From positions 3,456,001 through 3,520,000 of the forward strand of contig CAXXKJ010000002.1 of assembly GCA_963675295.2 (NCBI GenBank): 64,000 bases of DNA, read 5' to 3'. The notes below the pieces were generated by a model, which was not told the origin of the DNA, ran no database searches, and was given only the letters and a program-made list of their open reading frames with translations. The DNA comes from a bacterium. Its GTDB lineage: Bacteria; Electryoneota; Electryoneia; Electryoneales; Electryoneaceae. The translations under genes and the position numbers were made by a program. Positions 773-63,577 of the stretch are shown here, in pieces. Numbering within the stretch: position 1 is the first letter of the stretch; every line of letters starts with the position of its first letter.

Positions 773-2776
773 TTACCCCGCCAATAATCCCCAGATCAGC
801 GGAATCAGGATCAGGAAGATGCCCATCAGGCTCTCGCCGGCGATCAGGCCGGACGCGGTCGGGACGGTGTAGATGCTGTCCACCTTCGGCTTCCACTTGC
901 TCAGGATCAGCTGGATCAGGCCGCCGATGAACATCGACAGTGCATACCAGAAGTGGAACGTAAACGCCAGCCCGAGGCCCAGCGGGGACGGCACCCAGAT
1001 CCGTGCCTTCGGCGGCAGCACTTTCTGCAAGATCACCAGCAGGATTCCGACCAGCCCCCCGATCCACAAGGCCATCTGCGCGGTCGGGTGGATCGATTCC
1101 ATCCCGTTGGCCAATAGTTCCGCGACCGCCGCCCAGACCACTGCCGCCGGCGCGGGCCACTGGTCGGTGCCCAACGCGGATGCGTCCGGAACCAGCAGGT
1201 AGAAGGTCGGTACAGTCACCGCGGTGCCGATAAAGATGCCCCAGAACTGGGCGAGGAACTGCTTGCGTGGCTGTGCGCCAAGTACGTATCCGCTCTTCAG
1301 GTCGATCAGCAACGCGGAGGAACTGTCGGCGACACCGGCGGTGATGCCTGCTGCCATCAGGTTGACTGTTTGACGTCCCGGGGCGATGCCGCCGTAGACC
1401 AGCTGCATCACCTTGCCCATCGCGCCAATCGGGCTGGTGTCGGTTTCGCCGGTGGTCCGGCAGGCGACCAGGGCGAGGAAGAAGCTGAGGAAAATCGCCA
1501 GCGCGCTCATCCAGATCGGCATGCCGAAGGCGACTTGTGCAACGTAGATAATGCCCAGCGCGCCGACCACGCCGCCAGCCACCATCCACGATCCCGGCAC
1601 TTCGATCTTCTTGATGTACTCGTCCAGCTCCGGGTTGCCCGACCCCTTGGACTTGATGCCGATGATGCTGCCGACGCCACTCAGCGCCCGCACCACCGAC
1701 TTCCACTGCATCGCGAACGCCAGCAGACCGGAGGTGACCATGCACGCCGCCCCGCCCCAAAGCGACCACGAAACCATCGTGCGGTACTCGAGTGATTCAA
1801 TCACGCCCTGGTTGTACATCATCGGCACGAGAATCACCCAGTTGAGGATCGCGCCGAGCATGATTGACGCCGCGACACGGAAGCCCATCAACCCGCCCGC
1901 CGCGACTAGCAGCAACGATCCTTCGCCGGCTACGGTGTAGTCCATCGCCTTCTTGCCGAAGATCGGATAGACGCCCTCGATGATCGTGAACGCCTTTTTC
2001 ACGATCCCGATTTCCATCAGCATCGCAGGACCGTCACGCAGCAACGTCAGCAACGCACCCAGCCCGCCGGCAATGAATAGAGCGTTAGCCGATTTTTGCG
2101 CCTGCGATTCATCAGTGATCGCACCTTCGGCGTCCGCCGCTTCGGCCTCCGCGGCAGCTTCCCGCTCCTCGTCCTCGACCGTGACGATGTCCGCCACTGG
2201 CTTCTGTAGCGCCGGCTTGTGATCGAGGTCGTGGTGCAGGCTGCGAAGCGTCGCCGCCGCCGCAATACCAGACGGGAACCGCAGCCGTTCCACGTTGATC
2301 ATCTGGCGCTTCATCGGAATCGCCATCGTCACGCCGAGCAACGCGAGGAAGAAGATCCACAGGGTGAGGTGGAAGTAGCCGATGTGCGCACTGTTGACCA
2401 GGACAAACGCCGCGACCGCGCTGACCAGCGTGCCGCCGGTGGAATAACCCGCTGAGGACGCCGCCGACTGCATCGCGTTGTTCTCAAGGATCGTCATGTC
2501 AGACTTGGTGACGCCGATCTTGCGGAAGAATTTCCAGATCGCCCACGAGAGCACGCAAGCCGTGATCGCGACACCAAATCCCCAGCCCGTTTTCAGCCCG
2601 ATGTACAGGTTGGTCAGACTCATGATCGCGCCGAGCGCGAGGCCCATGATCGCGGCACGCAGGGTCAGCTGCGGCATGTCGCCACGATAATGTTCTCTGT
2701 AGTAGCGGAGTTCCTGTTCTTCAGACGTCAGAACGTGACGTGCAGCGGAGGTGCCTGGCTGGGTGTCCTGATCCAT
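773..2776 (-). CDS. OPT family oligopeptide transporter
   Basis: QLTLRA, NLYIGLKTGW, ENNAMQSAASS, LRFPSGIA, DLKSGYVLGA motifs; many TM helices. Confidence 0.92.
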   Translation of the reverse strand: MDQDTQPGTSAARHVLTSEEQELRYYREHYRGDMPQLTLRAAIMGLALGAIMSLTNLYIGLKTGWGFGVAITACVLSWAIWKFFRKIGVTKSDMTILENNAMQSAASSAGYSTGGTLVSAVAAFVLVNSAHIGYFHLTLWIFFLALLGVTMAIPMKRQMINVERLRFPSGIAAAATLRSLHHDLDHKPALQKPVADIVTVEDEEREAAAEAEAADAEGAITDESQAQKSANALFIAGGLGALLTLLRDGPAMLMEIGIVKKAFTIIEGVYPIFGKKAMDYTVAGEGSLLLVAAGGLMGFRVAASIMLGAILNWVILVPMMYNQGVIESLEYRTMVSWSLWGGAACMVTSGLLAFAMQWKSVVRALSGVGSIIGIKSKGSGNPELDEYIKKIEVPGSWMVAGGVVGALGIIYVAQVAFGMPIWMSALAIFLSFFLALVACRTTGETDTSPIGAMGKVMQLVYGGIAPGRQTVNLMAAGITAGVADSSSALLIDLKSGYVLGAQPRKQFLAQFWGIFIGTAVTVPTFYLLVPDASALGTDQWPAPAAVVWAAVAELLANGMESIHPTAQMALWIGGLVGILLVILQKVLPPKARIWVPSPLGLGLAFTFHFWYALSMFIGGLIQLILSKWKPKVDSIYTVPTASGLIAGESLMGIFLILIPLIWGLLAG

Positions 2777-2904
2777 GGTCTTCCCTCAAACTGGGTGGGC
2801 AACTGTGAGAATGCGTCAATATAGGGGATTGACCCGGCTCGGGCTACGGGACAGGGACGAAACCGTGAATTTGTCAGTCGCGGCGACGCCGGGGTCCAGC
2901 CCCA

Positions 2905-3132
2905 TCAGTCCCACTGTTCCCGCAACCAGTCATGGACAGCCGCCGCGTACTCATCGGTCTGCTCGTGCCCGGCGTCAAAGGTCTGAAACTCAACGTTCAG
3001 GTACTCACCCACCCGTACCCACGATTGCGCGGAGTACAGTAGTGGCGAATCGTCGGGAGTGACGGCGAATGCGGATGGCGGCAGTACAAGGCATGACAGA
3101 ACAAAGAAGAAGATTACACTGACCCGAACCAT
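2905..3132 (-). CDS. Short hypothetical exported protein or gene remnant
   Basis: 75-aa ORF with signal-peptide-like N-terminus ending AFA and a G-rich RBS upstream. Confidence 0.4.
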   Translation of the reverse strand: MVRVSVIFFFVLSCLVLPPSAFAVTPDDSPLLYSAQSWVRVGEYLNVEFQTFDAGHEQTDEYAAAVHDWLREQWD

Positions 3133-3260
3133 GACGCTCCCCCCCTTTTGGCGTCGATTGCCTGTTCATGTTTCTGATAGGGACAGAATGAAGCAGGAAT
3201 CGTTACACGCCTGGGTACCTCCATTCCATGGACAGTTGAAATGAAGCGTCTGCGGAATGT

Positions 3261-4687
3261 CTAGTGGATGGCTGAATCGCTTGGAATCAAGAGACGCACC
3301 TGATACCAGCCGGATTCCGTGAGTGCAGACACCATTTCGATTCCAAGCAGGGCTGCATAGTTCTGTGCCAGGGTCAGCCCCATGCCGAGATGAAACTCAC
3401 TGCGACTGGTTTCTTTTCTCCAGAATGGTTCGTTCATATGCTCAATCTCGGTAATGTCCAGATCAGGAGCAGGGTTCTCAATTGTCCAGCTGGTGACATT
3501 GGGATCGGAATCAACCCAACACCGAACTGTGGCACCATCTGGTGAATGCAGTACCGAGTTCGAGATGAGGTTCTGCAACAACGATTCGAGCTGACTTGAA
3601 CTGCTGGATACGCAAATGCCATCCCCGACTTGCAGATCCAGCTTAAGATTTCTCTGATTTGCCTGGCCTTGCAATCGGTCCCATACCGCGCGCGTCAATG
3701 CGGACAGATCAACTTGCGTCATTACAATGGTGATTTCATGCTGCTGCATCCTCGCCATTGCTAGCAGAACGGAGACCGTCATCTCAAGCTGTTTTGCGAT
3801 CGCCTCAGCGTCTTCGAAATACGCCCTGACATCTTCATTGGTAGCCACGAAAGCGTCATTCAATGCGACCTCCGCCAGCGTGCGCAATTCTGCGATGGGA
3901 GTTCGCAACTCATGCGCAGCGTCGGCGGTGAATCGCCGTTCCCGGTTGTAGGCTGCTTCCATGCGTTCCAACAGCTGATTGAAGGATTTAACCAGGGGTT
4001 TCAGTTCTGCCGGTTGCTCGTGTGTCGGGAATCGATGGGATAGCTGGTCGGTTTGCAGCTGCCTGACCTTGAAGCTGAAACGGTCCAGCGGAGCCAAACC
4101 TCGTCTGACTACCAGCAGGACTAGTGGTATGGTGAGGATAAGTAGCAACAGTGCGGTGGCAACAATCCCCAGTTGAATCAACGTCAGCGTCTTATCAAGC
4201 CCTGATCGAGAAACCGCCAGTGTTAAAGTGTGTTCGAAATTTTCCCTGGGTTGATCAGATCCCGAGCCACGTTCGATGCGAGGTATGTACCGAATAAGAG
4301 CCGCTCGTGCAGATGTCCGATCTTCCCGGCTCATCGAATAAATGATGAGCGAATCAGTTACTGTAGCAAAGTCCATCAATGACAGTTGCACGCTGGTATC
4401 TGATCGAACACAACCCTGCCCAGCTTGTCACGCAGTTCATAATCGATCACCAGCCCACCGGCTTCCAGTCCCGTGATCGACAGATCCTCGAGGTCGAACT
4501 CGAATTCACCCTCTTCATTGATTTCGGTGACCTGTAGAATTGCATCCGCCCGGCTGAGCAATGCCTGGTCGAAGGCGGCAATCAGTGCGTGTCTGGTGAC
4601 TCCATACACTGCGAATCCAGCCAGCACAACAAGTAGGCTCAAACCAGCAAGTAGTCCAGCGATCAACTGTATGCGAATGGAGTTCAC
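3261..4687 (-). pseudogene. CusS/QseC-like sensor histidine kinase split by a frameshift (ORFs 4376-4687 and 3261-4391)
   Basis: N-terminal ORF has TM1 and the start of the periplasmic domain; second ORF has TM2, HAMP, H-box FTADAAHELRTP and HATPase_c (LLQNLISNS, GMGL); frames overlap near 4376-4406. Confidence 0.8.
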
Positions 4688-19961: not shown

Positions 19962-21119
19962 CTCCCCCTCCCCCGTGTTTACGACGAGCCGATGGATGGC
20001 CGCCTCCGCCACCTTGTTTGCGGCTGTCGGAATCAAACTAAACTGCGGAGCTATGGGGTGCAACGGGGATTCGGGGATGAGTTCGGGCATGTCGTAACCC
20101 GGGCGCGGGGCTTGGGGCGCCGGGCTCAGGGGTTGATGGTGCTTCGGTGTAGGATGGTCCCGGACTGAAGTACGTGGGCGTGGGTCTACCGGGGACACTT
20201 TGGGGACAAAGTGTCCCCGGTTCACGTTGGATTCGAGTGTGGACGGTCCGCGTCCGCAAGCGGACACGGGCACATCCTGGTTGTGATTGAAGCGGACGAA
20301 ACCGGCGTGCGCGGAATAATAGCCGTTCTTCTCCCGGAAAATCAGATCCGGGTAGATCAGGCGGCAGGGGTTGGGCTTGGTCGTGCGTTTCAGCCCACGG
20401 TTCCAGCCGCCGCCTGGCCCGTCCGGACCCTGGCCGGGTTTGTAACGCTTGCGTGGTTTGGGTTTCGGGCGTTTGAGGCGACCGTATTCGTCGAGCAGCT
20501 CCGGTGGGACGGGCTCGCCGGAGGAATCGTAGACGGTGGGCGGAGTTCGGAGGACCGGGCCGCCGTTGATGGCGATGGGGAGTGAACCGGGCTCGGGGCT
20601 TGGGGTTCTGGGCTCGGGGGGTGATTCAACCGGCGGATGATCTGCGGTAGCAGAGCTCCCGCGGGCATTTTGATTATGCAGCTCCTGCGGTTCGGGTGGC
20701 GGTATGTCGTGATCCCCGGGTTGACACCCGAAGCTAGTTAGATGCCACCCCTTCGGGGTGGTCGTGCCGTCGAAAGTTGTCGTCTCGACTGGACGGACTT
20801 GCGCGACGCCATGAAGAATTAGCATCTTCCACAGCGAAGCGACGATTCCCTTGACAGCACGGACAAGACGTACGATCCCCCGTTTCCCGATGGTGATGAG
20901 GGAAATACAGGTGTGGATGGCTGGTTGTCGATGCGTCGTGGGCTGCATGGCGGGATGGCTGTGGTGCGCGTGATGGGATCCGCTCACGATGAACGGATGT
21001 TCAGAATTATACTTCCTTTTGTGTTGGTTGTCAAGGCGTTGCGCTAGCTTCGAGAGGATTTTTTAGCAGATCCAGTACATCAATTATTTGCCTACTGAAA
21101 CGACTTCCATGGAGTTCAC

Positions 21120-22511
21120 ATGTTCAGAACGCTACTAGTTACACTACTAATTACCTCCTTCCAAGTTACATACGCAGTAGATTCATGGTTTGAACACACA
21201 ATAATTGATAATATTTCTGCTGAGGGCTTATACACTTCTGATATTAACTCAGACGGCTTTATTGATATTATTACAGGATCTGATTCACTTATTGTTTGTA
21301 TAAATAACGGTGATAACACATTTAATACACATTATTTTAGCATTAATGAAGGCAATATTTACTTAATCACAAGTTTAGCAACTGCTGATTTAGATTCAGA
21401 CGGCGATTTAGACATTATTGTCGTTTCTGAGTATATAGAAGACACACTTATTTGGATGGAAAACACTGATAATGGATTTCTAAAACATAGTGTTGATAAC
21501 GATATGCAATATTATTATGTAACAGTTTATGATATTGATAACGATTATGACATGGATATTATTACGTTTGGTTCACAGAGTCATATTTGGTTTAATGACA
21601 ATGCAACATTTACTTCGTCATTAGTAGGTAACAATTTGGGTATTGCTTATGATGCCGATATCGATGATTATGACAATGATAGTGATCTAGATATAGTCGT
21701 CTTAACATTTGACAACATCATTATGTTTTCTAATACCGGAAACAATATCTACAATCAAGGTATTATTGATACTGCTGAACCTTTTCAAGGATTCTGGTCC
21801 ATAGAGTCAGGTAGAATTAATGATGATTTGAAGCCAGATATTGTCGTTTCATCTAATAGTGAGATAAAATGGTATGATGTATATCAAGATACAATATACT
21901 CAAATAACATTTATCAACTAAATAACTATGATGACATTAGCTTATCTATTATTGACATGGACTACGATGATGATAGTGATATTATATGCGCGTTTAAACT
22001 GTCAAATAAACTACTATGGTTAGAAAATACCAATGACAATTTATGGAGTACACATCTAATAGGGTTAAATGAGACTACACAAAATATATTTGGTTCATCT
22101 GTTAAAAGCGAACAGTTTGACGTTGATCCAGATGTGGAAGTTGTACTAGCACTTTCATCAAAAATAGTCTGGTATGATTACAATGATTATCCATTGATAA
22201 TTACTCCAATAGTAACAAATATACCACCTGCTGGTGGTTCTATTCTCTATTCTTTGTCTTTAGTTAATCCAACATTGACAGCTCAATTCGGAATAAACTA
22301 TTGGACATCTATTACACTTCCGAACGGTAACACTCTTAGCCCTATAGTGACTGCTACTTTTAATATAGGTCGATATAGAACAATTATTATTGATCAACTA
22401 TATCAAAATGTGCCCAGTTTTGCGCCAAGCGGAACATACGTTCATACTTCAAATGTTGGATACTATCCAGAAAGCCTCTTGAATGCAAGCTTTGAATTCA
22501 CAAAAAACTGA
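21120..22511 (+). CDS. Secreted FG-GAP/VCBS repeat protein with a shared C-terminal Ig-like domain; very AT-rich
   Basis: Repeated DxDxDGDxDI motifs with WxEN; signal peptide; abrupt GC drop relative to flanks. Confidence 0.85.
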   Translation: MFRTLLVTLLITSFQVTYAVDSWFEHTIIDNISAEGLYTSDINSDGFIDIITGSDSLIVCINNGDNTFNTHYFSINEGNIYLITSLATADLDSDGDLDIIVVSEYIEDTLIWMENTDNGFLKHSVDNDMQYYYVTVYDIDNDYDMDIITFGSQSHIWFNDNATFTSSLVGNNLGIAYDADIDDYDNDSDLDIVVLTFDNIIMFSNTGNNIYNQGIIDTAEPFQGFWSIESGRINDDLKPDIVVSSNSEIKWYDVYQDTIYSNNIYQLNNYDDISLSIIDMDYDDDSDIICAFKLSNKLLWLENTNDNLWSTHLIGLNETTQNIFGSSVKSEQFDVDPDVEVVLALSSKIVWYDYNDYPLIITPIVTNIPPAGGSILYSLSLVNPTLTAQFGINYWTSITLPNGNTLSPIVTATFNIGRYRTIIIDQLYQNVPSFAPSGTYVHTSNVGYYPESLLNASFEFTKN

Positions 22512-47349: not shown

Positions 47350-48048
47350 TCAGCGCATCAGGTTGTATTTGAGGATGCAGTACAGGTGCCGGAACGCGTC
47401 CTTGAAGCGGATTTTCTTCCCCTCCTGGTACGTGCGGCCATAATAGGAGATCGGGACTTCGTACACCCGCCAGCGCGAGGTAACAGTCTTTGCAGTCAAC
47501 TCCGGGTCGATGCCGAAGCCGTTCTCGTACAGTGTGATCGAGTCCAGCACCTCGCGGCGGAAGGCTTTGTAGCAGACGTTGATGTCGGTCAGGTTGACGT
47601 TCGTCAGCAAATTGCTGAGGAAGGTCAGCGCCTTGTTCGCGAGGTAATGCCAGTAATAGAGAACGCGGTGCGCGCCGATGGAGAGGAAGCGGCTGCCGTA
47701 GACAACGTCCGCGATGTCATCCTGGATAAGGTGGACGAGCCGTGGGATCTCGGCGGGATCGTACTCGAGGTCGGCGTCCTGGATGACGACGACATCGCCG
47801 GTGGCGTATTTGAAGCCAGTGCGCAAGGCGCCGCCCTTGCCCCGGTTCTGCGCGTGACGGATGAATTTGACCCGCTCATGCGCGGTTTCCAGCTCCCGTC
47901 CGATCCGTGGGCTGTCGTCACGCGAATGATCGTCCACCAGGATCACTTCCAGCTCGTCGAACCCGTAATCCACCGCAAGCACTCGGCGGACCAGTTCGCT
48001 GAGAGTCGCTGCTTCGTTGTAGATGGGAATGACGATGGACAGTTTCAT
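47350..48048 (-). CDS. GT2 polyprenol-phosphate glycosyltransferase (DPM1-like)
   Basis: SIVIPIYNE, VDDHSRD, NRGKGGA, QDADLEYDP, VYGSRF, EVPISY.GR. Confidence 0.92.
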   Translation of the reverse strand: MKLSIVIPIYNEAATLSELVRRVLAVDYGFDELEVILVDDHSRDDSPRIGRELETAHERVKFIRHAQNRGKGGALRTGFKYATGDVVVIQDADLEYDPAEIPRLVHLIQDDIADVVYGSRFLSIGAHRVLYYWHYLANKALTFLSNLLTNVNLTDINVCYKAFRREVLDSITLYENGFGIDPELTAKTVTSRWRVYEVPISYYGRTYQEGKKIRFKDAFRHLYCILKYNLMR

Positions 48049-48202
48049 TGCCGCTCCGTGTGCCGCGTGTCTCGTTCGTGTTGAAACTACACGCTGAGAT
48101 GCAGGAGGCAAGAGGGAATTGAGAGACGGGGGGCGAAGAGATTTAAATGGCTCAATGAGATTTGTGAGTCGATTTTCGCATTTCAGAGGTGCAGCAGAGA
48201 TC

Positions 48203-49528
48203 CTACTCTTTTTTTGTCGGATACGGCGATTCACCAACTAGCTCAATGCTGTAGGACCGAACGCCGATCAAACTGCTCAATGCAAGTTCAAGATCGACCA
48301 GCGACCTTCGACTCTCATCAGCGGAATGAATCAACTTAGAAATCCAGACCGTCATTGTCCTTTGACGCTTTAAATTGCCAAATCCCGGTTTGAGTACAAG
48401 GTCAACTATATTAAAATACTGCCGAAGTAAAACACGTGTCACGGCATAGATCTGACCCGGGACATCGATGGTAACAATTTCAAGGATTAGCTCTTCGAAT
48501 TTTCCTTCCGTACTGGACTTCGGAATCAGTTTCCGTACGGTTGTTGTAAGATCCCACTTTCGTTTATAAAGATTTAACATCTTTTTTTCTTCCTTATCCG
48601 GCTTGTACACTTCCATTTTAAAATCTGTCGGCTTATTTGTGTCTACCGAATCCTTACTAAACAACTTTGCCATAAATGCGGCCAGATCTAAATCAGATGG
48701 CGGGTTATATTTTGACTTGAAAGTAACATAGATCGATGCCATAGATGTATATATAGAGGAAGAATGAGATACATGCAAAATATTGATGTTATTTGAAAAG
48801 AAATACATAGATAGATAGTGTATTAGACCAATAAAGTCAGGCCCATTGTAACGAGCCACATGTATATTATTAAATTCAGTATGATCATCGTCAACATATT
48901 CTTTATATTTTTTGAAATCTATATCTATTCTGTCCATAATTTCCCTTCTTTTTCTTATTATCGTTAATTTTATAGCCTTATCTTTACTATAATAGACTAA
49001 CGGTTCTTTTTCATCTGTTGTTGCATCTTTAGCCATCAACCTACCAACCGTTTTAGCGTTTATAGTATTTTCAAATTCTTTTAGAATCCATTCAGGAAGG
49101 AAATCATTAAGGTACGGATGTTTTTTATCCTTATCCTCGAATTTCCACAACGATGAATCCGGAACTTTCCAGTAAATATTGACAACAGGCTCATCATAAG
49201 CACGATCGACATCGGTTTCAGAATAGTTGTATTTTTTGAAGGTTTTGTACTCGTATTGAATAGGTGTTTCGTTCGTATTATTGTACGGGATACTTCTTTC
49301 TCCCTCTGTCAGGTAGTACAGTAGCACGAGGCGATCCGCGTTTTTCAGCAGATTGTCCACCACATCCTTCAGTTTCGTTTTATTCTCATCTCTATCGTCA
49401 ATTTCTCTGGGATCGGCTTCGAAGAACAGGGGACGATACCCATTCATACACAGCATGTGGACTGTATCCTTCCGTTCCTGTAGGAGCTCAGATACTCGTG
49501 AACTAACGAACACACTGATCGGATCCAT
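48203..49528 (-). CDS. AT-rich hypothetical protein: DUF4062-like N-terminus + two ACT-like domains
   Basis: VFVSS...L..ER...G..P..FE...QYEY at the N-terminus; GPDFIGLIHYLS..F..NNINI and DVPGQIYAVT.VL...FNI ACT-like motifs. Confidence 0.65.
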   Translation of the reverse strand: MDPISVFVSSRVSELLQERKDTVHMLCMNGYRPLFFEADPREIDDRDENKTKLKDVVDNLLKNADRLVLLYYLTEGERSIPYNNTNETPIQYEYKTFKKYNYSETDVDRAYDEPVVNIYWKVPDSSLWKFEDKDKKHPYLNDFLPEWILKEFENTINAKTVGRLMAKDATTDEKEPLVYYSKDKAIKLTIIRKRREIMDRIDIDFKKYKEYVDDDHTEFNNIHVARYNGPDFIGLIHYLSMYFFSNNINILHVSHSSSIYTSMASIYVTFKSKYNPPSDLDLAAFMAKLFSKDSVDTNKPTDFKMEVYKPDKEEKKMLNLYKRKWDLTTTVRKLIPKSSTEGKFEELILEIVTIDVPGQIYAVTRVLLRQYFNIVDLVLKPGFGNLKRQRTMTVWISKLIHSADESRRSLVDLELALSSLIGVRSYSIELVGESPYPTKKE

Positions 49529-49611
49529 CGTTATACTCCCTGATGAAAGACTGATAACATATCTCTAATGAATAATCAACACAAAGTAAATAGAAGGTTT
49601 AAAAGAAAATA

Positions 49612-50145
49612 AACTACCCCGCAGCAAGCTACGGGGTATCGACTACTCACAGCTCAAGTCGACTTTGATGTAGCGGCTGGTAGTTAGCTTCTGTACCTTG
49701 GTTCATAACGTATTTTCTGATTGTATTTTCGTCACCGTGCGGACCTACGGTGGATATATAATAACCTTTTGTCCAAAATTCCCCACCCCAGAGCTGCTTT
49801 TTAACTTTGGGTTGTCGGATAAACATCTCTCGTGCTGTTATGCTCTTTATAGTTCGTACTAATTTTGTAGCACTCATGGTTGGCACGGATTGCACTAAGA
49901 AATGCACATGATCTCTATCTATTCCAATTTCTATAAATTCTATTTCATAACGTTTTTGGATTTCAAAGCAGATATCCTTTAATGTTAAATCTATCTCAGG
50001 TTCATCAAATACAACACGACGGTATTTCGCTACACATACAAGATGGTATAGCAATATCGATACGTTGTGTTGTTTTCGGATCAGCTCAGACATTCCACAA
50101 GAAACCAACTGCAGCTGGCCGAAGCAAGCTTCGGGGCATCAACCG
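49612..50145 (-). mobile_element. IS200-like insertion sequence (tnpA only) with subterminal hairpins; ends approximate
   Basis: Hairpins TACCCCGCAGC-AA-GCTACGGGGTA (49615-49638) and CCGAAGC-AA-GCTTCGG (50119-50134) flanking tnpA. Confidence 0.8.
49647..50093 (-). CDS. tnpA: IS200/IS605 family Y1 HUH transposase
   Basis: YHLVCVAKYRR, DHVHFL (HUH), KSITAR, LWGGEFWTKGYY.STVG, I.KYV.NQ. Confidence 0.95.
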   Translation of the reverse strand: MSELIRKQHNVSILLYHLVCVAKYRRVVFDEPEIDLTLKDICFEIQKRYEIEFIEIGIDRDHVHFLVQSVPTMSATKLVRTIKSITAREMFIRQPKVKKQLWGGEFWTKGYYISTVGPHGDENTIRKYVMNQGTEANYQPLHQSRLEL

Positions 50146-57239: not shown

Positions 57240-57466
57240 AACCACGGAATACACGGAAAAGCAACTGACGTCCACGAAAACCGCGAAAATGAAACGAAAA
57301 AACAAAAGAAACATCTTTATGAATAAATCATAATGGATCGAATTATGCAGCATTATTTATATTTATCATTATCTGTATTATCAATTATTATAGGTTGTTT
57401 TCGCTTATTTTCGTGCATTTTGTGGACTATCATCTTTTTTCCGTTTATTCCGAGTATTCCGTGGTT
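57240..57466. repeat. Nested long inverted repeat around an AT-rich core
   Basis: AACCACGGAATACACGGAA (57240-57258) vs TTCCGAGTATTCCGTGGTT (57448-57466); inner imperfect pair 57270-57300 / 57398-57427. Confidence 0.75.
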
Positions 57467-57481
57467 GAGGAGAGGTATTTG

Positions 57482-58474
57482 ATGGCATACAAAACGCTTA
57501 TTCTCGGTGGAACGGGTTTCATCGGGCATCATATCGCGCGTGAGTTGCTCGCGAAGGGTCATACGGTCCGTGTGCTGGCGCGTGCGGGCGGCGACCGGTC
57601 GTTGCTCAAGGGGATGGATGTCGAGATCGTGGACGGCGACCTCAGCGACTCGTCCTCCCTGCTCGCGGCGCTGGAGGGCTGTGACGCGTTGATCCACGCC
57701 GCCGCGCACTACCCGGTGTGGTCGTTGGACGCCGACCGTGAGGCGGAACTCGGGCGTCAACAGATCCTGCGTGTGCACGAGGCGTTGGCGAAACATCCGG
57801 TCGAACGCTTTGTCTACGTTTCCGGGCCGGCTGCGGTCGGGCGCTATCCGGACGGGCGTCCGGCGGACGAAGACGCGCCGTGGCCGGAGGAACGCCGCAA
57901 GTCGGCGTATGCACGGGTGAAACGTGAGATGCAGGACCTGGTGCTGTACAACGCGCGGCGGACGAATGCGACGGTGGTTGTCCCGACCGGCACCTTCGGC
58001 CCGGGGGATCGCAAGCCGACGACCGGCCAGTTGATCGTGGACATCGCGGCCAACCGTGTGCCGGTGGCGTTGCACGGACGCACGAACGCGGTGTCGGTGT
58101 TCGCGGTGGCGGACGGTGTGCGGCGGACGTTGGAACAGGGCGCGGTCGGGCGGCTGTATGTGCTCGGGGACGAAAACCTGACGGTGCTCGAGCTGTGCAC
58201 ACGGATCGCGGATATCGTCGGCGTGCGCGCGCCACGGCTGGGCCTGTCGCCGGACATTCTGCGGCCGGTCGCGGTGATCGGGGAACACCTGGCGCGGCGG
58301 ATGCGGAAAGACCGTCCCGCGGTGCCCGTGGTCGGCCTCGACTTCGCGCTGTTCGGCACGCACCTCAGCAGCGACGTCGCGCGGAACGAACTGGGCTATG
58401 ATCCGTCGGCGTATCCGCTGGACGCGGCGCTGAAGGACGCGTGGGAGTGGTTCAAGGATCAGGAGATGGTGTAA
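57482..58474 (+). CDS. NAD-dependent epimerase/dehydratase (HpnA/dihydroflavonol reductase-like)
   Basis: ILGGTGFIG, GDL, IHAAA, YARVK, GPGD.KPT.G. Confidence 0.9.
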   Translation: MAYKTLILGGTGFIGHHIARELLAKGHTVRVLARAGGDRSLLKGMDVEIVDGDLSDSSSLLAALEGCDALIHAAAHYPVWSLDADREAELGRQQILRVHEALAKHPVERFVYVSGPAAVGRYPDGRPADEDAPWPEERRKSAYARVKREMQDLVLYNARRTNATVVVPTGTFGPGDRKPTTGQLIVDIAANRVPVALHGRTNAVSVFAVADGVRRTLEQGAVGRLYVLGDENLTVLELCTRIADIVGVRAPRLGLSPDILRPVAVIGEHLARRMRKDRPAVPVVGLDFALFGTHLSSDVARNELGYDPSAYPLDAALKDAWEWFKDQEMV

Positions 58475-58575
58475 GTTCATGGGTCGGTACAGGTTCAGGG
58501 ATTGGCCGGACCCGTTGCGCGGCGTCTCCGTTCCCCGGAACGGATTCTGCGTGGTAGCAGCGAATACAAGGGGGG

Positions 58576-58695
58576 ATGATCATGGCACAGCTGGTGATGT
58601 TAGGCGATTTCTTTCTGGGGCTGGGCGTTTTGCTGATCGGCCTCGCGGCGTTGTGGGGCGTGGCGGTGTGGAACGAAAAGGGGAAGAAGGGGTAG
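58576..58695 (+). CDS. Small single-TM membrane protein (37-39 aa), below the ORF-track cutoff
   Basis: MIMAQLVMLGDFFLGLGVLLIGLAALWGVAVWNEKGKKG; AAGGGGGG RBS; basic tail. Confidence 0.55.
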   Translation: MIMAQLVMLGDFFLGLGVLLIGLAALWGVAVWNEKGKKG

Positions 58696-58763
58696 CACGT
58701 TTAGCTTTATATAAAACTAATATTATATAATATCTAAAAATACATTATCAATATAACCGGTTA

Positions 58764-59723
58764 TTAAAATTCGATGTATTGAAACAATTTTTGTTCAGAT
58801 TCTGGTAGCCGAGATATCAGTTTAACGTAATAACGCCGATTTATCGGCTTTATAAACGAAAGATACCCATATATTTTCATCCTCATCATTTTTTTGTCAT
58901 CAGTATCATTTTCTAACTTATTGTAGTGATATATCATTGATCGTATTGTACGGTATTTTCTCCTACCAACACTAACTTTATCATCATGTACTATTAAACC
59001 AGTTACTAATTTTCTCATTCCCGGCCCCATGATCCTTGTTTTCTCACTGTTTATTTTAAATTCTTCATCATTTACTATTTTTCCTACACCAATTCTTGCT
59101 TTACAAATCAGTTTTATATTATTTCCAGATATTGACATATCATCCGCGTATCTGCTATACGAAAGGCCTCTGGTTTTACAGTATCTATCTATTCTCTTAT
59201 CCATTATTTTAACTACTAAATTTGAAATCGCTGGTGATGTGGGAGCACCTTGAGGGAGCACTCCATTTCTTGTACAAAGTTTTGAAAGCATAAATGCAGC
59301 TTTATTACTGTATCCTAAATATCTGAATAGTAAGAATACGCGTTTTAAAGTAATACTGGGAAAAAAATCCTTTATATCAAGACATAATACAAATTTATTT
59401 CCCATATGAGCCTCTGCATTATCTATTATTGAGTATCCATATCTAAACCCTGTTGCATTATCGGGTAAATATATGCCAACTGGATCTAATACTCGTCTTA
59501 ATATCCATTTTTGTATCCCCTTCAACGTTGTTAATGGCGCATCTATGGCTCTATTTCCTCCGTTCTTTTTTTCAATATTAAAATGTATATAATATCTTGA
59601 TGAATCTTTAATAATATTAAATAATAAATATTTTGAAACACGTAATAAATAACTTAGCTCTTCCAAGGAATCGAAATCTGGAAGTTCCTCTACCTGGGCA
59701 ATATGTTCTGCAATCGGATCCAT
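58764..59723 (-). CDS. Retron reverse transcriptase
   Basis: KKNGGNRAIDAP, NAEAH (retron region X NAxxH), DIKDFFPSI, LPQGAPTSP, YSRYADD, VTG (region Y); 319 aa. Confidence 0.93.
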   Translation of the reverse strand: MDPIAEHIAQVEELPDFDSLEELSYLLRVSKYLLFNIIKDSSRYYIHFNIEKKNGGNRAIDAPLTTLKGIQKWILRRVLDPVGIYLPDNATGFRYGYSIIDNAEAHMGNKFVLCLDIKDFFPSITLKRVFLLFRYLGYSNKAAFMLSKLCTRNGVLPQGAPTSPAISNLVVKIMDKRIDRYCKTRGLSYSRYADDMSISGNNIKLICKARIGVGKIVNDEEFKINSEKTRIMGPGMRKLVTGLIVHDDKVSVGRRKYRTIRSMIYHYNKLENDTDDKKMMRMKIYGYLSFIKPINRRYYVKLISRLPESEQKLFQYIEF

Positions 59724-59738
59724 GACTGTTTAAAAAAG

Positions 59739-59892
59739 GGATCGGAGTGAACTTTCCTAACTCTGAGAAATCCGTCAACTAAGCGACAGCCGAGCGAAGG
59801 CTGTCGCTTAGTTGAACGAGAGATGCTACATAACCTCATGGACGGCGCAACACCATCCGTAGTGTTCTAAGGAAGTGTAAACACTCCGATCC
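59739..59892 (-). ncRNA. Retron msr-msd non-coding RNA
   Basis: 11-bp perfect a1/a2 inverted repeat (59739-59749 / 59882-59892); CCTTAG with candidate branching G at 59867; msr stem-loop near 59840-59858; 17-bp perfect msd stem 59775-59791 / 59799-59815. Confidence 0.85.
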
Positions 59893-59899
59893 GCAGCCC

Positions 59900-60787
59900 T
59901 CAATAAGCATCTAGAATGTAGTTGCTTCGAATTAAATCAAAAGATGTAGAATGTTGTATTGTCTTTTTAACCAATCCTGACACAAAAGCATACCCTTGAC
60001 TTGTAATTTCATAATTATACCCCTGTACTTTTAAATACAAATCATTTATTAAAATATTTAACGATATAGGGATATTTTCATCTGCAACTTTTTGTGAATC
60101 AGGTATATTATGCAAATCAAGTAAGTATTTATACGCATCTATCAATATAGGTTCCGGAAACATATCAACAAATGAAGAGAAAAACAAGACAAAAAACTTT
60201 ATCTCAAGAGGATTTGATATAAAATCTTCTAATGATGTCTTCTTATCTCCAACAATTTTCCTTACTGCACTATGAATGTTTTTTATGATCTGCTTGCTGT
60301 ATTCATCGCTTAATATATTATCAAGATCATAGTATATAATTATGGAATCAGTATGTTTATCAAGATATCTAACGGGACCTTGCATTATAAAACTATTAGC
60401 ATTTTTGTATTGTTCATCAACTAAAACTATTAATTTATCTTTAAGTTTTTCATGATTTGTGAAGGATCCTAGCTCTGTAAAAGATCCAGGACTCTCTGGT
60501 ATGATTAAAACTGACTCCACACTTGACGCTAGTGTATTTTCTAATTCTAGTAGATTATATTTTTTACCTCTATATAGTAGATCTGTAAAAATATGTTCAG
60601 GATAATACACTTCTACATCAAAACCATATGCCTTTATTTCTAAAAGCCTATTTTTTATAATTTTTCTGATTGATTCTTGTTCATTAATGCTTTTACCAAC
60701 AATAAATAATTTTATCCTTTTTTCTATTAGGCTAGGATATATAAGGTCTAATGTATCCCTTGCTATATTTCGAGTCGTCGAATTCAT
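59900..60787 (-). CDS. Retron type II-A-like effector (NDT-like domain + putative C-terminal winged helix)
   Basis: YPEH.F..L, NLLELEN.LA, IIPESPGSFTELGSF, SFI.QGP; C-terminal Y.IT..G motif. Confidence 0.85.
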   Translation of the reverse strand: MNSTTRNIARDTLDLIYPSLIEKRIKLFIVGKSINEQESIRKIIKNRLLEIKAYGFDVEVYYPEHIFTDLLYRGKKYNLLELENTLASSVESVLIIPESPGSFTELGSFTNHEKLKDKLIVLVDEQYKNANSFIMQGPVRYLDKHTDSIIIYYDLDNILSDEYSKQIIKNIHSAVRKIVGDKKTSLEDFISNPLEIKFFVLFFSSFVDMFPEPILIDAYKYLLDLHNIPDSQKVADENIPISLNILINDLYLKVQGYNYEITSQGYAFVSGLVKKTIQHSTSFDLIRSNYILDAY

Positions 60788-60861
60788 GTCTTTGGCTCAC
60801 TTTTCTTGCATCCATCCCGAAGAGGACTGACGTGAAAACGCTGACAAGAGGAACCTATGGT

Positions 60862-60890
60862 AAGATATGCTCAATTAGTCGAGAAATCAA
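60862..60890 (-). promoter_or_regulatory. Putative sigma70 promoter of the retron operon
   Basis: TTGATT-N17-TATCTT on the minus strand about 75 nt upstream of the effector start. Confidence 0.35.
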
Positions 60891-61072
60891 TACTCTGAAC
60901 TTTACTTATATAAACCTATCAGGAATAGTTTTCGAAGGCCCTTTACCTAGCCTTCATTTGATTTACATCGAATTGAACTTTTCCTCTCCTCGTGGCCTCT
61001 ACTGGTAGACGGGTGCATGGGACGTCGTGTGGGTCGGCGTGCCTGTGTGGATCTGAAGCTGGAGAGGAAACC

Positions 61073-62794
61073 ATGAAGCAACCACGTTTGAATCGCACAT
61101 CCAGGCCGCACAGGGCCAGTACGTCTGAGCCGCACAGAGCCAGTACGTCGAAGCCGCGCAAAGCCGGTACTTCAGTGCCGTATAAGTCCACCGTTACCGA
61201 ATCCGCGTTTGCGAGCAAACACGGCCACGTATCAATGCACGGGCGGCTGACCCGCACCAGCCAGCTGGTACGGGCACACACACCAAGGGCGTACAACCTC
61301 CTCGCGTCCGCGTCTGCAAGCAGACACGGCCACGTATCAATGCACGGGCGGCTGACCCGCACCAGCCAGCTGGTACGGGCACACACACCAAGGGCGTACA
61401 ACCTCCTCGCGTCCGCGTCTGCAAGCAGACACGGGCACGTATCTCACGGGCACATATCTCACGGGCACGTATCTCACGGGCACATATCTCACGGGCACGT
61501 ATCTCCCCGGAACATGCCTAGCGGATCAGCCGCGTTTGCAAGCAAACACGGGCACTTATTTATCCACCCCATCCTGACGATCGTGTTGCTGCTGATGCTG
61601 ATCGCGGCGATACCGGGCTGCACACCGCGTGCGTCCGAAGAGATTCCGCGGCCGGAGGAGATTGTAAGCAAGCGGGTGATCGTGTATGACCAGCCGACGT
61701 ACGACGACCTGTCGCAGAAGTGGTCGGCGTATTATGACGCGTTCCCGTCGGAATACGCGTACGCCAACTGGATGTACGCCGCGCGGTATGCGAAGTGGGA
61801 CGATTACGAGACGTTGCTGAAGCGTGGGCTCAGCCTCTACCCTGCCAACCCGACGTTGCTGTACCTGATGTCGATGACGTTCGGCAACGGGTCGGAGGAC
61901 GCGCTGGCGTACACCGAGCGTGCGATCTACCTCGATCCGGGGTATACCGACCCGTATTTCAACCTCGTCGGCGAGGCGATGGCACGTGGCGACGACGAAC
62001 GCACGCGGACGGCGTTGGCGAAACTGCTCGAGCAGGGCGCGGTGGACGACCTCGTGCTGGATTACGGTTACAACATGCTGGCGACGTTGCAGCCGGACGC
62101 GATCCTGATCACGAACGGCGACAATGATACGTACCCGTGCTGGATTCTGCAGCAGGAGCTGGGGATTCGCACGGATGTGAACGTGATCAACCGGTCGTTG
62201 CTGAACACGGCGTGGTACCCAGGGTATGTGATCGAGCGTGGCGCGCCGCCGTTCATTCCGTTGGGCGAGGTAGACGCGTTCCAGGCGGAACACAAGGCGG
62301 AGTCCGGCGATCAACTGATTCTGCGGATCGTTGATGCGGCGGAGAAGCAGGGCCGGCCGGTGTATTTCGCGGCGACGATGTATGAAACTCCCGCGATCCA
62401 GCCGTTGATGGAGGATGCGCCGTTGTTCGGGCTGTCGCTGCTGGTCAGCGATCCAGGGCGGGACACGGATATCGACGCTGAACGGGAACGAGCCGCGCGG
62501 GTTATTCTGGACGAGTATCGCACGCAGGCGTTGCAAAGTTGGCGGACCCGGTACGCGTCGAAAACGGTCGCGGCGGGAGTGTCGATCTCGCGGAATTATT
62601 TCTACGCGACGTACGATCTGGCGACACATCTGGACTCGCGTACCTTGCAGCGTGACCTGTTCTTCTGGAATCGGGACAACACGTTCGGGCTGTTCGACGC
62701 GACCTCGGAGGACAACATGAAACGGGCGTGGTGCCGGATCGAGGGAGTCCCGGAAATCCGGGCGTGGTGCGAAGGTGAAGGCTACGAGGAGTAG
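61073..62794 (+). CDS. TPR-like putative lipoprotein with GDNDTYP motif and repeat-expanded N-terminus; start uncertain (61073 or 61515)
   Basis: GGAGAGG RBS before ATG 61073; lipobox-like IPGC; TPR-like helices; ILITNGDNDTYP..LQ...IR.DV.VIN.SLLN..WY. Confidence 0.65.
   Translation: MKQPRLNRTSRPHRASTSEPHRASTSKPRKAGTSVPYKSTVTESAFASKHGHVSMHGRLTRTSQLVRAHTPRAYNLLASASASRHGHVSMHGRLTRTSQLVRAHTPRAYNLLASASASRHGHVSHGHISHGHVSHGHISHGHVSPRNMPSGSAAFASKHGHLFIHPILTIVLLLMLIAAIPGCTPRASEEIPRPEEIVSKRVIVYDQPTYDDLSQKWSAYYDAFPSEYAYANWMYAARYAKWDDYETLLKRGLSLYPANPTLLYLMSMTFGNGSEDALAYTERAIYLDPGYTDPYFNLVGEAMARGDDERTRTALAKLLEQGAVDDLVLDYGYNMLATLQPDAILITNGDNDTYPCWILQQELGIRTDVNVINRSLLNTAWYPGYVIERGAPPFIPLGEVDAFQAEHKAESGDQLILRIVDAAEKQGRPVYFAATMYETPAIQPLMEDAPLFGLSLLVSDPGRDTDIDAERERAARVILDEYRTQALQSWRTRYASKTVAAGVSISRNYFYATYDLATHLDSRTLQRDLFFWNRDNTFGLFDATSEDNMKRAWCRIEGVPEIRAWCEGEGYEE
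61104..61505 (+). repeat. Nested tandem repeats with 21-, 105- and 15-bp units
   Basis: About 3 imperfect 21-bp units; 105-bp period (ACGG(C/G)CACGT at 61221, 61326, 61431); 5 x CACGGGCAC(G/A)TATCT. Confidence 0.85.
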
Positions 62795-62796
62795 CC

Positions 62797-63345
62797 GTGG
62801 ACGACTGGACGCTGTACCGGCAGGCAAAACGTGGCAACGAGGCGGCGTGGCGGATGTTGATCGCGCGGCACGGGCCACGTCTGCTCAACCTGGTCGCGTT
62901 CACGACAGGATCGCCGGAAGCGGCGCAGGACGCGGTGCAGGAGGTGTTTCTCGATTTGTACAAGCGTCCGCCGAAGCATCAGAAAGGGAGCCTGGCGTCG
63001 TACCTGAGCACGGCGGCGTGGCGGCTGGCGTTGAAGGCGAAGAAACGGCACGCGCGGGTGGTGCGGTTGCAGGTGGACGAAGATCATGCCGGTGGGATTG
63101 AAGATGAACAACCGTCGGCGCTGGACACGGTGCTCAAGTCGGAGCGGGATGTGTACGTGATGCGGGCGATCAACCGTCTCGAAGACGATCTGCGTGATGT
63201 GGTGTTGCTGCGGTTTTACGGCGGGTTGGCGTACGACGCGATCGCACGGGAAGTGGGCGTGCCGTTGGGGACGGTGAAGTCGCGGCTGTTCCGGGCGGTT
63301 CGGCTGTGTGGTGAACAGTTGAAGCAGATCGGGTGGCTGGACTGA
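62797..63345 (+). CDS. ECF sigma factor
   Basis: AQDAVQEVF; region 4.2 LAYDAIAREVGVPLGTVKSRLFRA. Confidence 0.92.
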   Translation: MDDWTLYRQAKRGNEAAWRMLIARHGPRLLNLVAFTTGSPEAAQDAVQEVFLDLYKRPPKHQKGSLASYLSTAAWRLALKAKKRHARVVRLQVDEDHAGGIEDEQPSALDTVLKSERDVYVMRAINRLEDDLRDVVLLRFYGGLAYDAIAREVGVPLGTVKSRLFRAVRLCGEQLKQIGWLD

Positions 63346-63577
63346 CAGGTGTGAGGTATGAGGTGTGAGGAACGGATGGCTGCGGATGATTCGCGGTAGT
63401 CTTCACTGTACTGCGGGCATCGGTCGGGGACGGAAAAGCCGCGATAGCCGTCGAAACAGACCGGCGGACAATCACGGGCACCGATCCACCAACCGCTGAC
63501 AGTACGAGAGACGAAGGACCAGAGACGAGAGACCAGTGGTGAGTTGTGAGTGATGAGGAACTGATCAGGATATAAAG

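Follow-up and report, generated by a model that had tools for sequence, protein, structure and literature searches.

A predicted Ec86-type (II-A3) retron in an AT-rich island of a GC-rich bacterial genome

The 64,000-nucleotide stretch of contig CAXXKJ010000002.1 analyzed here (hereafter the window), which comes from a member of the Electryoneota, carries near its right end an abruptly AT-rich block with two genes, one of which encodes a reverse transcriptase (RT). This raises the question of which kind of RT system the block encodes, and of whether its architecture is as unusual as the initial annotation supposed when it described a type II-A retron with the noncoding RNA (ncRNA) between effector and RT, "unlike" the order ncRNA-RT-effector that it attributed to retron Ec86. 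Our comparisons identify the locus, by its sequence, as a type II-A retron formed by an NDT-like effector and an RT, and assign it to subtype II-A3, the kind of Ec86 (Retron-Eco1), with the order effector, msr-msd ncRNA, RT. Taking all evidence together, we consider it very probable that this is an intact II-A3 retron with an Eco1-like mechanism that was acquired by horizontal transfer. The cassette lies on the minus strand, where two co-oriented open reading frames (ORFs) are separated by a spacer of 176 nt (59724..59899). The island (58700-60950; 2.25 kb) has a GC content of 0.319, versus 0.640 in the left flank (57395-58690) and 0.617 in the right flank (61000-63400), and the spacer folds with an energy of -76.3 kcal/mol (z = -6.03) that was matched by 0 of 200 shuffled sequences. 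The AT-rich island with two intact genes and a structured spacer that had been described from the letters alone is thus real, and the motifs named in that description (YADD, NAxxH and VTG in the RT, PESPGSFTELG in the effector) are all present in the translations (Table 1).

The RT matches Pfam RVT_1 (5.7e-24), and retron RT models score between 200 and 346 bits on it. The best PADLOC model is RT_II-A PDLC02941 (3.9e-104, 346 bits); the next model is 52 bits lower, and the other RT_II-A models lie 88-126 bits below the best. The NCBIfam model NF038233 (retron_St85_RT) is matched with 273.3 bits at a cut-off of 235. Among solved structures the Ec86 RT comes first (7v9u, 8.8e-58, 199 bits), followed by the retron RT of Ec67 (119 bits), and the Ec78/'St85 family' RTs reached 93 bits in the PDB search, against 199 for the Ec86 RT. 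The protein shares 37% identity over 301 aa with the Ec86 RT of Escherichia coli BL21. In a phylogenetic tree of 77 RTs, which omits L042 and L066 (short ORFs) and does not contain a reference set of all retron types, the window RT falls inside a 36-row group that includes Ec86 (SH-aLRT, the Shimodaira-Hasegawa-like approximate likelihood ratio test, 94). Placing the RT in a phylogeny had been proposed as a check of the locus; the grouping with Ec86 stands, on a long branch and in a tree of the scope just given. A PADLOC search, which had also been proposed, gave the models of Ec86 for both proteins.

For the effector, that model is NDT_II-A PDLC02930 (2.2e-60); together with PDLC02941 it is also the best PADLOC model of the Ec86 proteins of BL21. 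The NCBIfam model NF038232 (retron St85 family effector) is exceeded as well (137.5 bits, cut-off 100), so that the assignment to type II-A in the initial annotation is upheld by both model collections. The sole real match among solved structures is the Ec86 effector (7v9x_C, 7.6e-27). The window effector and its BL21 counterpart share 30% identity over 266 aa; the motif PESPGSFTELG (residues 97-107) is identical in the two proteins, and the predicted catalytic glutamate within it, E105, is aligned with E106 of Ec86 and invariant across 40 relatives. E106 is termed catalytic in the available part of preprint 10.1101/2023.08.16.553469, and its exchange (E106A) figures in the title of PDB entry 8qbl. 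An AlphaFold2 model of the effector built from 40 homologues has a mean predicted local distance difference test score of 90.8 and shows helices and a beta-hairpin at 193-276. In a Foldseek search of the PDB, the three best matches of this model are the Eco1 effector over its full length, with template modeling scores of 0.69-0.78, and apart from the Eco1 effector nothing was found at E<=1e-3. Our local copy of Pfam-A gave no family for the effector; PF28093.1 is precomputed in the protein database for it and for three relatives. For neither protein was a near relative found. A search of 1.84 billion sequences with the effector returned 1508 matching clusters at E<=0.001, the best representatives being 34-45% identical and one fragment 50%, while the top match of the RT in 5.8 billion proteins has 44% identity with 91% coverage, and no match rises above 46%.

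Is the gene order unusual? In E. coli BL21, Ec86 consists of an effector gene (L095, 1318-2241) and an RT ORF (2404-3366) with the msr-msd in the 162-nt spacer between them, and the construct name 'effector-ncRNA-rrt' in the available text of 10.1101/2023.08.16.553469 gives the same order. A scan for relatives of the effector, taking one genome per species, yielded 80 loci from many phyla (19 phylum labels), in 76 of which an RT gene is next on the same strand; the other four are L035, which ends soon after the effector, L072, L081 and L091. The spacers of the 76 loci, of L001 and of the window measure 100-317 nt, with a median of 181 nt. Because Ec86 and 76 of the 80 loci match, the order in the window and its 176-nt spacer are the norm for the subtype, and the contrast with Ec86 drawn in the initial annotation was mistaken. 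The 80 II-A3-like loci from other phyla (e.g. L015, L016, L022 and L079) share the cassette, the spacer length and the ncRNA hallmarks with the window, but none is close, the effectors being 27-45% identical in the best segment and the RTs 34-46%. The subtype names follow Table 1 of PMC7736814, where Ec86 is type II-A3 and St85 and Ec73 are II-A1; their common listing under type II in the initial annotation agrees with that table. It should be noted that NCBI labels the Ec86 proteins 'St85 family' as well. The locus is therefore best described, on these comparisons, as a divergent Ec86-type retron with the standard architecture of its subtype, and since the architecture that seemed unusual is standard, it opens no new question.

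The initial annotation had placed the ncRNA in the structured spacer between effector and RT, and this placement is supported by alignment with related loci: TTA-G, the msr hairpin and the start of a2 all align in the spacer of the window. In 61 of 78 loci the spacer is embraced by an outer stem of 9 bp or more, as detected with a script, and these rows were used. The first alignment held the window and 54 of the 60 others, omitting L071 (a near copy of L070) and L079, L083, L087, L090 and L093 (spacers of about 290-317 nt). Common to these 55 ncRNAs are an a1 arm ending in TTA with a G directly after it, a hairpin with a UUYC-type loop, and an a2 arm that starts with TAA after a G; in the window, these elements correspond to G59867, the hairpin 59840-59858, and 59751-59760. 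The msr hairpin was recovered by RNAalifold from the 55 sequences, with compensatory changes in 7 of its 8 pairs, and when pairs are counted outward from the invariant G, positions 4-18 pair far above shuffles. The second alignment left out the window and the poorly anchored L020, L025, L073 and L094 and included Ec86, giving 51 sequences. In these relatives, pairing in the a1/a2 and msr helices reaches 88.8%, versus 68.2% in shuffles and 45-50% when slid, and 19 of 22 helix pairs change on both sides; for the msr helix alone the value is 97.5%, and 7 of its 8 pairs vary on both sides. The priming G is invariant in all 55 sequences of the first alignment and in all 51 relatives, Ec86 included. 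In the window, the inner a1 arm is in register with the covarying a1/a2 helix of the relatives, and G59867 would, going by established retron biochemistry, serve as the 2'-OH primer. The GC content of the spacer (0.494, versus 0.28-0.32 in the coding parts of the island) suggests structural constraint. Ec86 is named after the 86-nt length of its multicopy single-stranded DNA (msDNA). On the basis of this length and the position relative to the Ec86 hairpin, the msDNA of the window is predicted to measure roughly 65-75 nt, and the DNA fold of the predicted msDNA (59762-59832) has an energy of -21.6 kcal/mol (z -6.78).

Judged by homology to Eco1, the cassette would be expressed, produce msDNA and confer defense that is set off by a phage trigger. 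The ncRNA would fold via its a1/a2 arms, and the RT would bind the conserved msr hairpin, prime from the 2'-OH of G59867 and copy the msd, starting beside a2 at about 59762, into msDNA with the 17-bp hairpin as its core. The complex of RT and msDNA would restrain the NDT-like effector until a phage factor changes the msDNA and thereby releases or activates it, upon which the effector may hydrolyze NAD+ or deplete adenine nucleosides via E105 and thereby abort infection. Filaments formed by the Eco1 RT-msDNA and effector are on record in PDB titles. The degradation of NAD+ that the initial annotation ascribed to the Ec86 effector accords with the available part of preprint 10.64898/2026.10.13.758329, which states NAD+ hydrolysis by the Eco1 effector, and the same text has this effector as non-toxic on its own. 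The assay of toxicity of the effector alone that had been proposed for the locus may therefore turn out negative.

The comparison with Ec86 shows the same three parts in the same order, and both ncRNAs have a1/a2 arms, TTA-G and the same msr hairpin. There are also differences. The a1 of the window starts 7 nt after the effector stop codon, while that of Ec86 overlaps the end of the effector gene, and the predicted msDNA is shorter than the 86 nt of Ec86. In addition, neither CCWGG nor GATC is present in the msd of the window. The trigger of Ec86, according to the available part of 10.1101/2023.08.16.553469, is the Dcm of the phage, and adenine nucleosides are depleted; as the msd of the window has no CCWGG, this trigger cannot act there in the same way. 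The genomic settings differ as well, since Ec86 lies beside phage portal and terminase genes, whereas the retron of the window sits in its AT-rich island with no prophage genes adjoining. A St85-family effector lies on E. coli plasmid NZ_CP019246.1 (L002, 2117-4031), in the same P2-like prophage position as the Ec86 of BL21 and with the same DinI-like flanking gene. It was considered as a second reference and dropped, there being no RT ORF of at least 150 aa downstream; it is possibly a decayed retron.

Several observations weigh against an intact retron of the Ec86 type and should be set out together. Both proteins stand on long branches and have no close relatives; the end branch of the window RT in the tree measures 1.43, and its sister lacks good support. 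D69 of the Ec86 effector, which is a base-binding residue according to the available part of 10.1101/2023.08.16.553469, aligns with T68 of the window effector, whose own D69 comes next. In the ncRNA, the a1/a2 pairing is split by a 5-nt/1-nt internal loop, unlike that of Ec86, and the inner arm contains one C-A mismatch. The G and the conserved hairpin stand just 8 nt apart, so that the first msr stem-loop, which Ec86 and most relatives have, is missing; the same stem-loop is also missing in 6 of the 54 other aligned ncRNAs (L017, L022, L025, L026, L044 and L051). The paired percentages given above are partly built in, the rows having been selected for an outer stem, but this does not hold for the register to TTA-G or for the covariation. 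An Rfam scan of 58300-61300 at E<=10 gave three chance-level matches and no retron family. A covariance model of the full-length ncRNA, built from the 51 relatives with the window excluded, found nothing in the window with default filters; unfiltered, it gave AT-rich chance alignments (E 0.2-0.45) and, in the spacer, only the msr hairpin (8.1 bits, E 1). On 26 held-out related loci with both genes, this model found 18 at E<=0.05, two weakly and six not at all. Because 8 of the 26 miss E 0.05, such a miss is not exceptional for this cassette, but a miss it is. A second model, also without the window and restricted to the 5' module (from the last part of a1 through the G to the hairpin; 71 positions), has its best match of the 64 kb, both strands searched, at 59825-59877 on the minus strand, where it would be expected, over all 71 positions and with 15 bits. 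This match is weak, with E 1.1 for the whole window, which is not significant, and 0.0037 for a search of the 221 nt around the spacer.

These points bear most directly on the possibility that the cassette is a genuine II-A3 retron that is silent or no longer functional in its host, whether because foreign AT-rich DNA is poorly transcribed or because the ncRNA has drifted too far for the RT to prime on it. The miss by the full-length model, the internal loop and mismatch between the inner arms, a GC content at third codon positions (GC3) extremely far from that of the host, and the long branches of the proteins all fit such a history. Against it stand two full-length ORFs with all catalytic motifs and a spacer in which the invariant G and the msr hairpin are retained, as are perfect stems of 11 and 17 bp, along with the elevated GC content of the spacer, which suggests that its structure is under constraint, and the eight two-gene loci that the model misses elsewhere; we consider a silent or dead cassette unlikely. 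Another possibility is a toxin-antitoxin retron of subtype II-A1 like Retron-Sen2 (St85), with an effector that is toxic alone and RT-msDNA as the antitoxin. Sen2, which we compared by description only, resembles the window in having an NDT-like and DNA-binding effector (RcaT) and a retron RT, and the NCBI names cover both systems. Its gene order is msr-msd, effector, RT. The same order is given for a Sen2-like retron in the available part of PMC11701397, and Table 1 of PMC7736814 places the RTs of Sen2 and Ec86 in clades 1 and 9, respectively. The Sen2 effector is toxic and forms tetramers, and its trigger is Dam methylation of the GATC in the msd (available part of 10.64898/2026.10.13.758329), a site that the msd of the window does not have. 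That NCBI models name both window proteins 'retron St85 family', and that type II effectors share one architecture (PMC7736814 and 10.64898/2026.10.13.758329, in their available parts), would agree with a Sen2-like system, but the same NCBI names are used for the Ec86 proteins, the best PADLOC models are those of Ec86 with the other RT_II-A models far lower, and the ncRNA occupies the same place as in Ec86, between effector and RT. The fold of the stretch upstream of the effector (60788..60950) does not surpass that of shuffled sequences (z -1.54; 15 of 200 equalled it), which indicates no second structured RNA there. We therefore regard a Sen2-like system as improbable.

Still less credence attaches to the two remaining alternatives. 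If the island were foreign AT-rich DNA misjoined into a GC-rich genome, as a chimera of the assembly or a contaminant, then the abrupt change of composition at both edges and the lack of the island in all relatives would be expected. Contigs of public runs argue otherwise: Logan contigs from three runs of one sample span 56500/56536-61248 with zero differences, and in a second sample of the same study contigs at 57665-59347 (left border) and 60684-61053 (right border) cross the joins without differences. As both borders are bridged in these contigs, the island is joined to GC-rich DNA beyond this assembly alone, and a misjoin appears very improbable; both samples belong to one study, and the fully covered one may be the source of the genome, which makes the independent support weak. 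Finally, the RT might belong to a group II intron, a diversity-generating retroelement (DGR), or an Abi or defense-associated RT (DRT/UG) system, its neighbor being an unrelated gene and the hairpin in the spacer a terminator. All that speaks for this are weak matches to a group II RT/maturase model (TIGR04416, 55 bits), Drt2 (40 bits) and Drt3a (33 bits). These lie far below the cut-offs of 300, 390 and 200, respectively, as do Drt4 (22.5 versus 450) and Drt5 (14 versus 550), while retron models are above theirs. Moreover, NAxxH and VTG are present, the adjacent gene encodes the cognate retron effector, elements specific to the family are common to the spacer and 54 retron ncRNAs, and we found neither a terminator-like site nor a DGR template/variable repeat pair or intron RNA fold, so that a non-retron RT is hardly credible. 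What best accounts for the locus thus remains an intact retron of subtype II-A3.

Within this subtype, the window might represent a deep orphan branch of the Ec86 type with a minimal ncRNA: a single msr hairpin, and a predicted msDNA (about 70 nt) made up almost wholly of one perfect 17-bp hairpin and free of Dcm and Dam sites. We put this forward tentatively and with more doubt than confidence. If true, the system would sense a phage activity different from those sensed by Eco1 (CCWGG) and Sen2 (GATC), and it may offer a compact new scaffold for retron-based DNA production.

How did the cassette reach this genome? It was probably acquired horizontally, as the initial annotation had proposed, and composition supports this: GC3 is 0.24 in the RT gene and 0.20 in the effector gene, versus 0.79-0.80 in three neighboring genes. 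The composition points to a low-GC organism as the donor, which is not among the sequences compared. The cassette is rare in its surroundings. The genome of the window has one RT (the sole Pfam RVT_1 match) and one match to the effector family; among 79 genomes of the phylum, the effector family occurs only in the window's own, which is likewise the only one with an RT above the family cut-off, and none of 30 relatives has a DNA match to the island. A different retron RT was seen in another genome of the phylum (G058), where L105 (G058:C8, 1489-2391, minus strand) encodes a 300-aa protein that scores highest with the PADLOC model RT_VI (227.6 bits); neither of the adjoining two ORFs has a PADLOC match. 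For the defense system, which already spans many phyla, the window adds one further host lineage and provides a clean example of the recent horizontal acquisition of a defense cassette. The practical value is modest: a divergent and compact pair of RT and ncRNA, with a predicted msDNA that lacks the known methylation triggers, might suit retron toolkits.

Table 1. Positions of the retron features in the window
Feature	Position	Strand	Size	Basis or remark
Retron reverse transcriptase	58764..59723	-	319 aa	NAEAH 102-106, YADD 192-195, VTG 240-242
Effector	59900..60787	-	295 aa	NDT-like (RcaT-type) N-terminal domain and C-terminal winged-helix-like domain
Retron ncRNA (msr-msd)	59739..59892	-	154 nt, outer a1 to outer a2	Fold and alignment
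a1, outer arm	59882..59892	-	11 nt	Perfect complement of 59739-59749 (inverted repeat)
a1, inner arm	59868..59876	-		Ends TTA; pairs with 59751-59759 at 8 of 9 positions, by eye
Predicted branching (priming) guanosine	59867	-		Directly after a1; invariant TTA-G column
Conserved msr hairpin	59840..59858	-	8 bp	RNAalifold, covariation
msd hairpin	59775..59815	-	17-bp perfect stem, 7-nt loop	Inverted repeat; stem-loop of predicted msDNA
a2	59739..59759	-		Inner arm 59751-59759, unpaired T, outer arm 59739-59749; 15 nt before RT start codon
AT-rich island with retron	58700..60950	none		Borders by composition only
Upstream untranslated region of effector	60788..60950	-		Presumed promoter region; GC 0.405

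The genes around the island encode a seven-transmembrane histidine kinase, an NAD-dependent epimerase, a protein without a Pfam family, an extracytoplasmic function sigma factor and a zf-HC2 anti-sigma factor. The absence of an integrase and a tRNA at the island edges had already been remarked upon; the five flanking ORFs that we scanned contain no integrase-like domain, and no tRNA was found across the whole 64-kb window. A promoter and terminator scan was uninformative, with nine promoter-like sites where 10.8 were expected and zero terminators. Repeats at the edges were set aside: a 13-nt direct repeat (58707-58719 / 60906-60918, 12 of 13 positions) and an 11-nt inverted repeat (58768-58778 / 60964-60974) lie in AT-rich sequence that has about 20 similar pairs, and were treated as chance. 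Upstream of the effector, a 15-nt word (60967-60981) resembles the a2 region (59741-59755; 13 of 15 positions), which, in AT-rich sequence with many pairs of this kind, may be chance. An empty site was sought in G001, a genome of the same genus, and this candidate was rejected: the match with the window (85% identity) stops at 58483, and the closest counterpart of the next G001 gene (69% identity) is located about 1.9 kb past the window end. The difference between the two, about 7.4 kb, far exceeds the island, and G001 therefore does not define the island borders. The G001 gene after the epimerase belongs to a very large paralogous family in the window's genome (195 matches, of which 150 were listed).

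Two further AT-rich islands were noted in the window. The one at 21001-22500 (GC 0.32-0.44) holds a single ORF (21120..22511, plus strand, 463 aa), whose product carries FG-GAP repeats (Pfam FG-GAP_3, 2.3e-15) and has no PADLOC match. The other, at 48001-50110 (GC about 0.40), holds a 441-aa ORF (48203..49528, minus strand) that resembles DUF4062 only weakly and below threshold, adjoined by an IS200-like Y1 transposase gene (49647..50108, minus strand, 4.1e-36); neither of these two matches PADLOC. Dispersed repeats also occur around the retron. The spacer between the histidine kinase and epimerase genes (57243-57470, GC 0.36-0.43) has many partial copies in its own genome and in G001 and is a dispersed intergenic repeat. 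Immediately to the right of the retron lie a 105-bp tandem duplication (61202-61295 / 61307-61400, 97%) and three copies of a 24-bp repeat (61105-61176). Words of 30-40 nt from 61000-61560 recur many times in the same genome as well as in others from its genus and family, and contig depth there is about ninefold that of the flanks, so that this region looks like a dispersed repeat resembling repetitive extragenic palindromic (REP) elements; the start of the 600-aa ORF at 60992..62794 probably lies after it.

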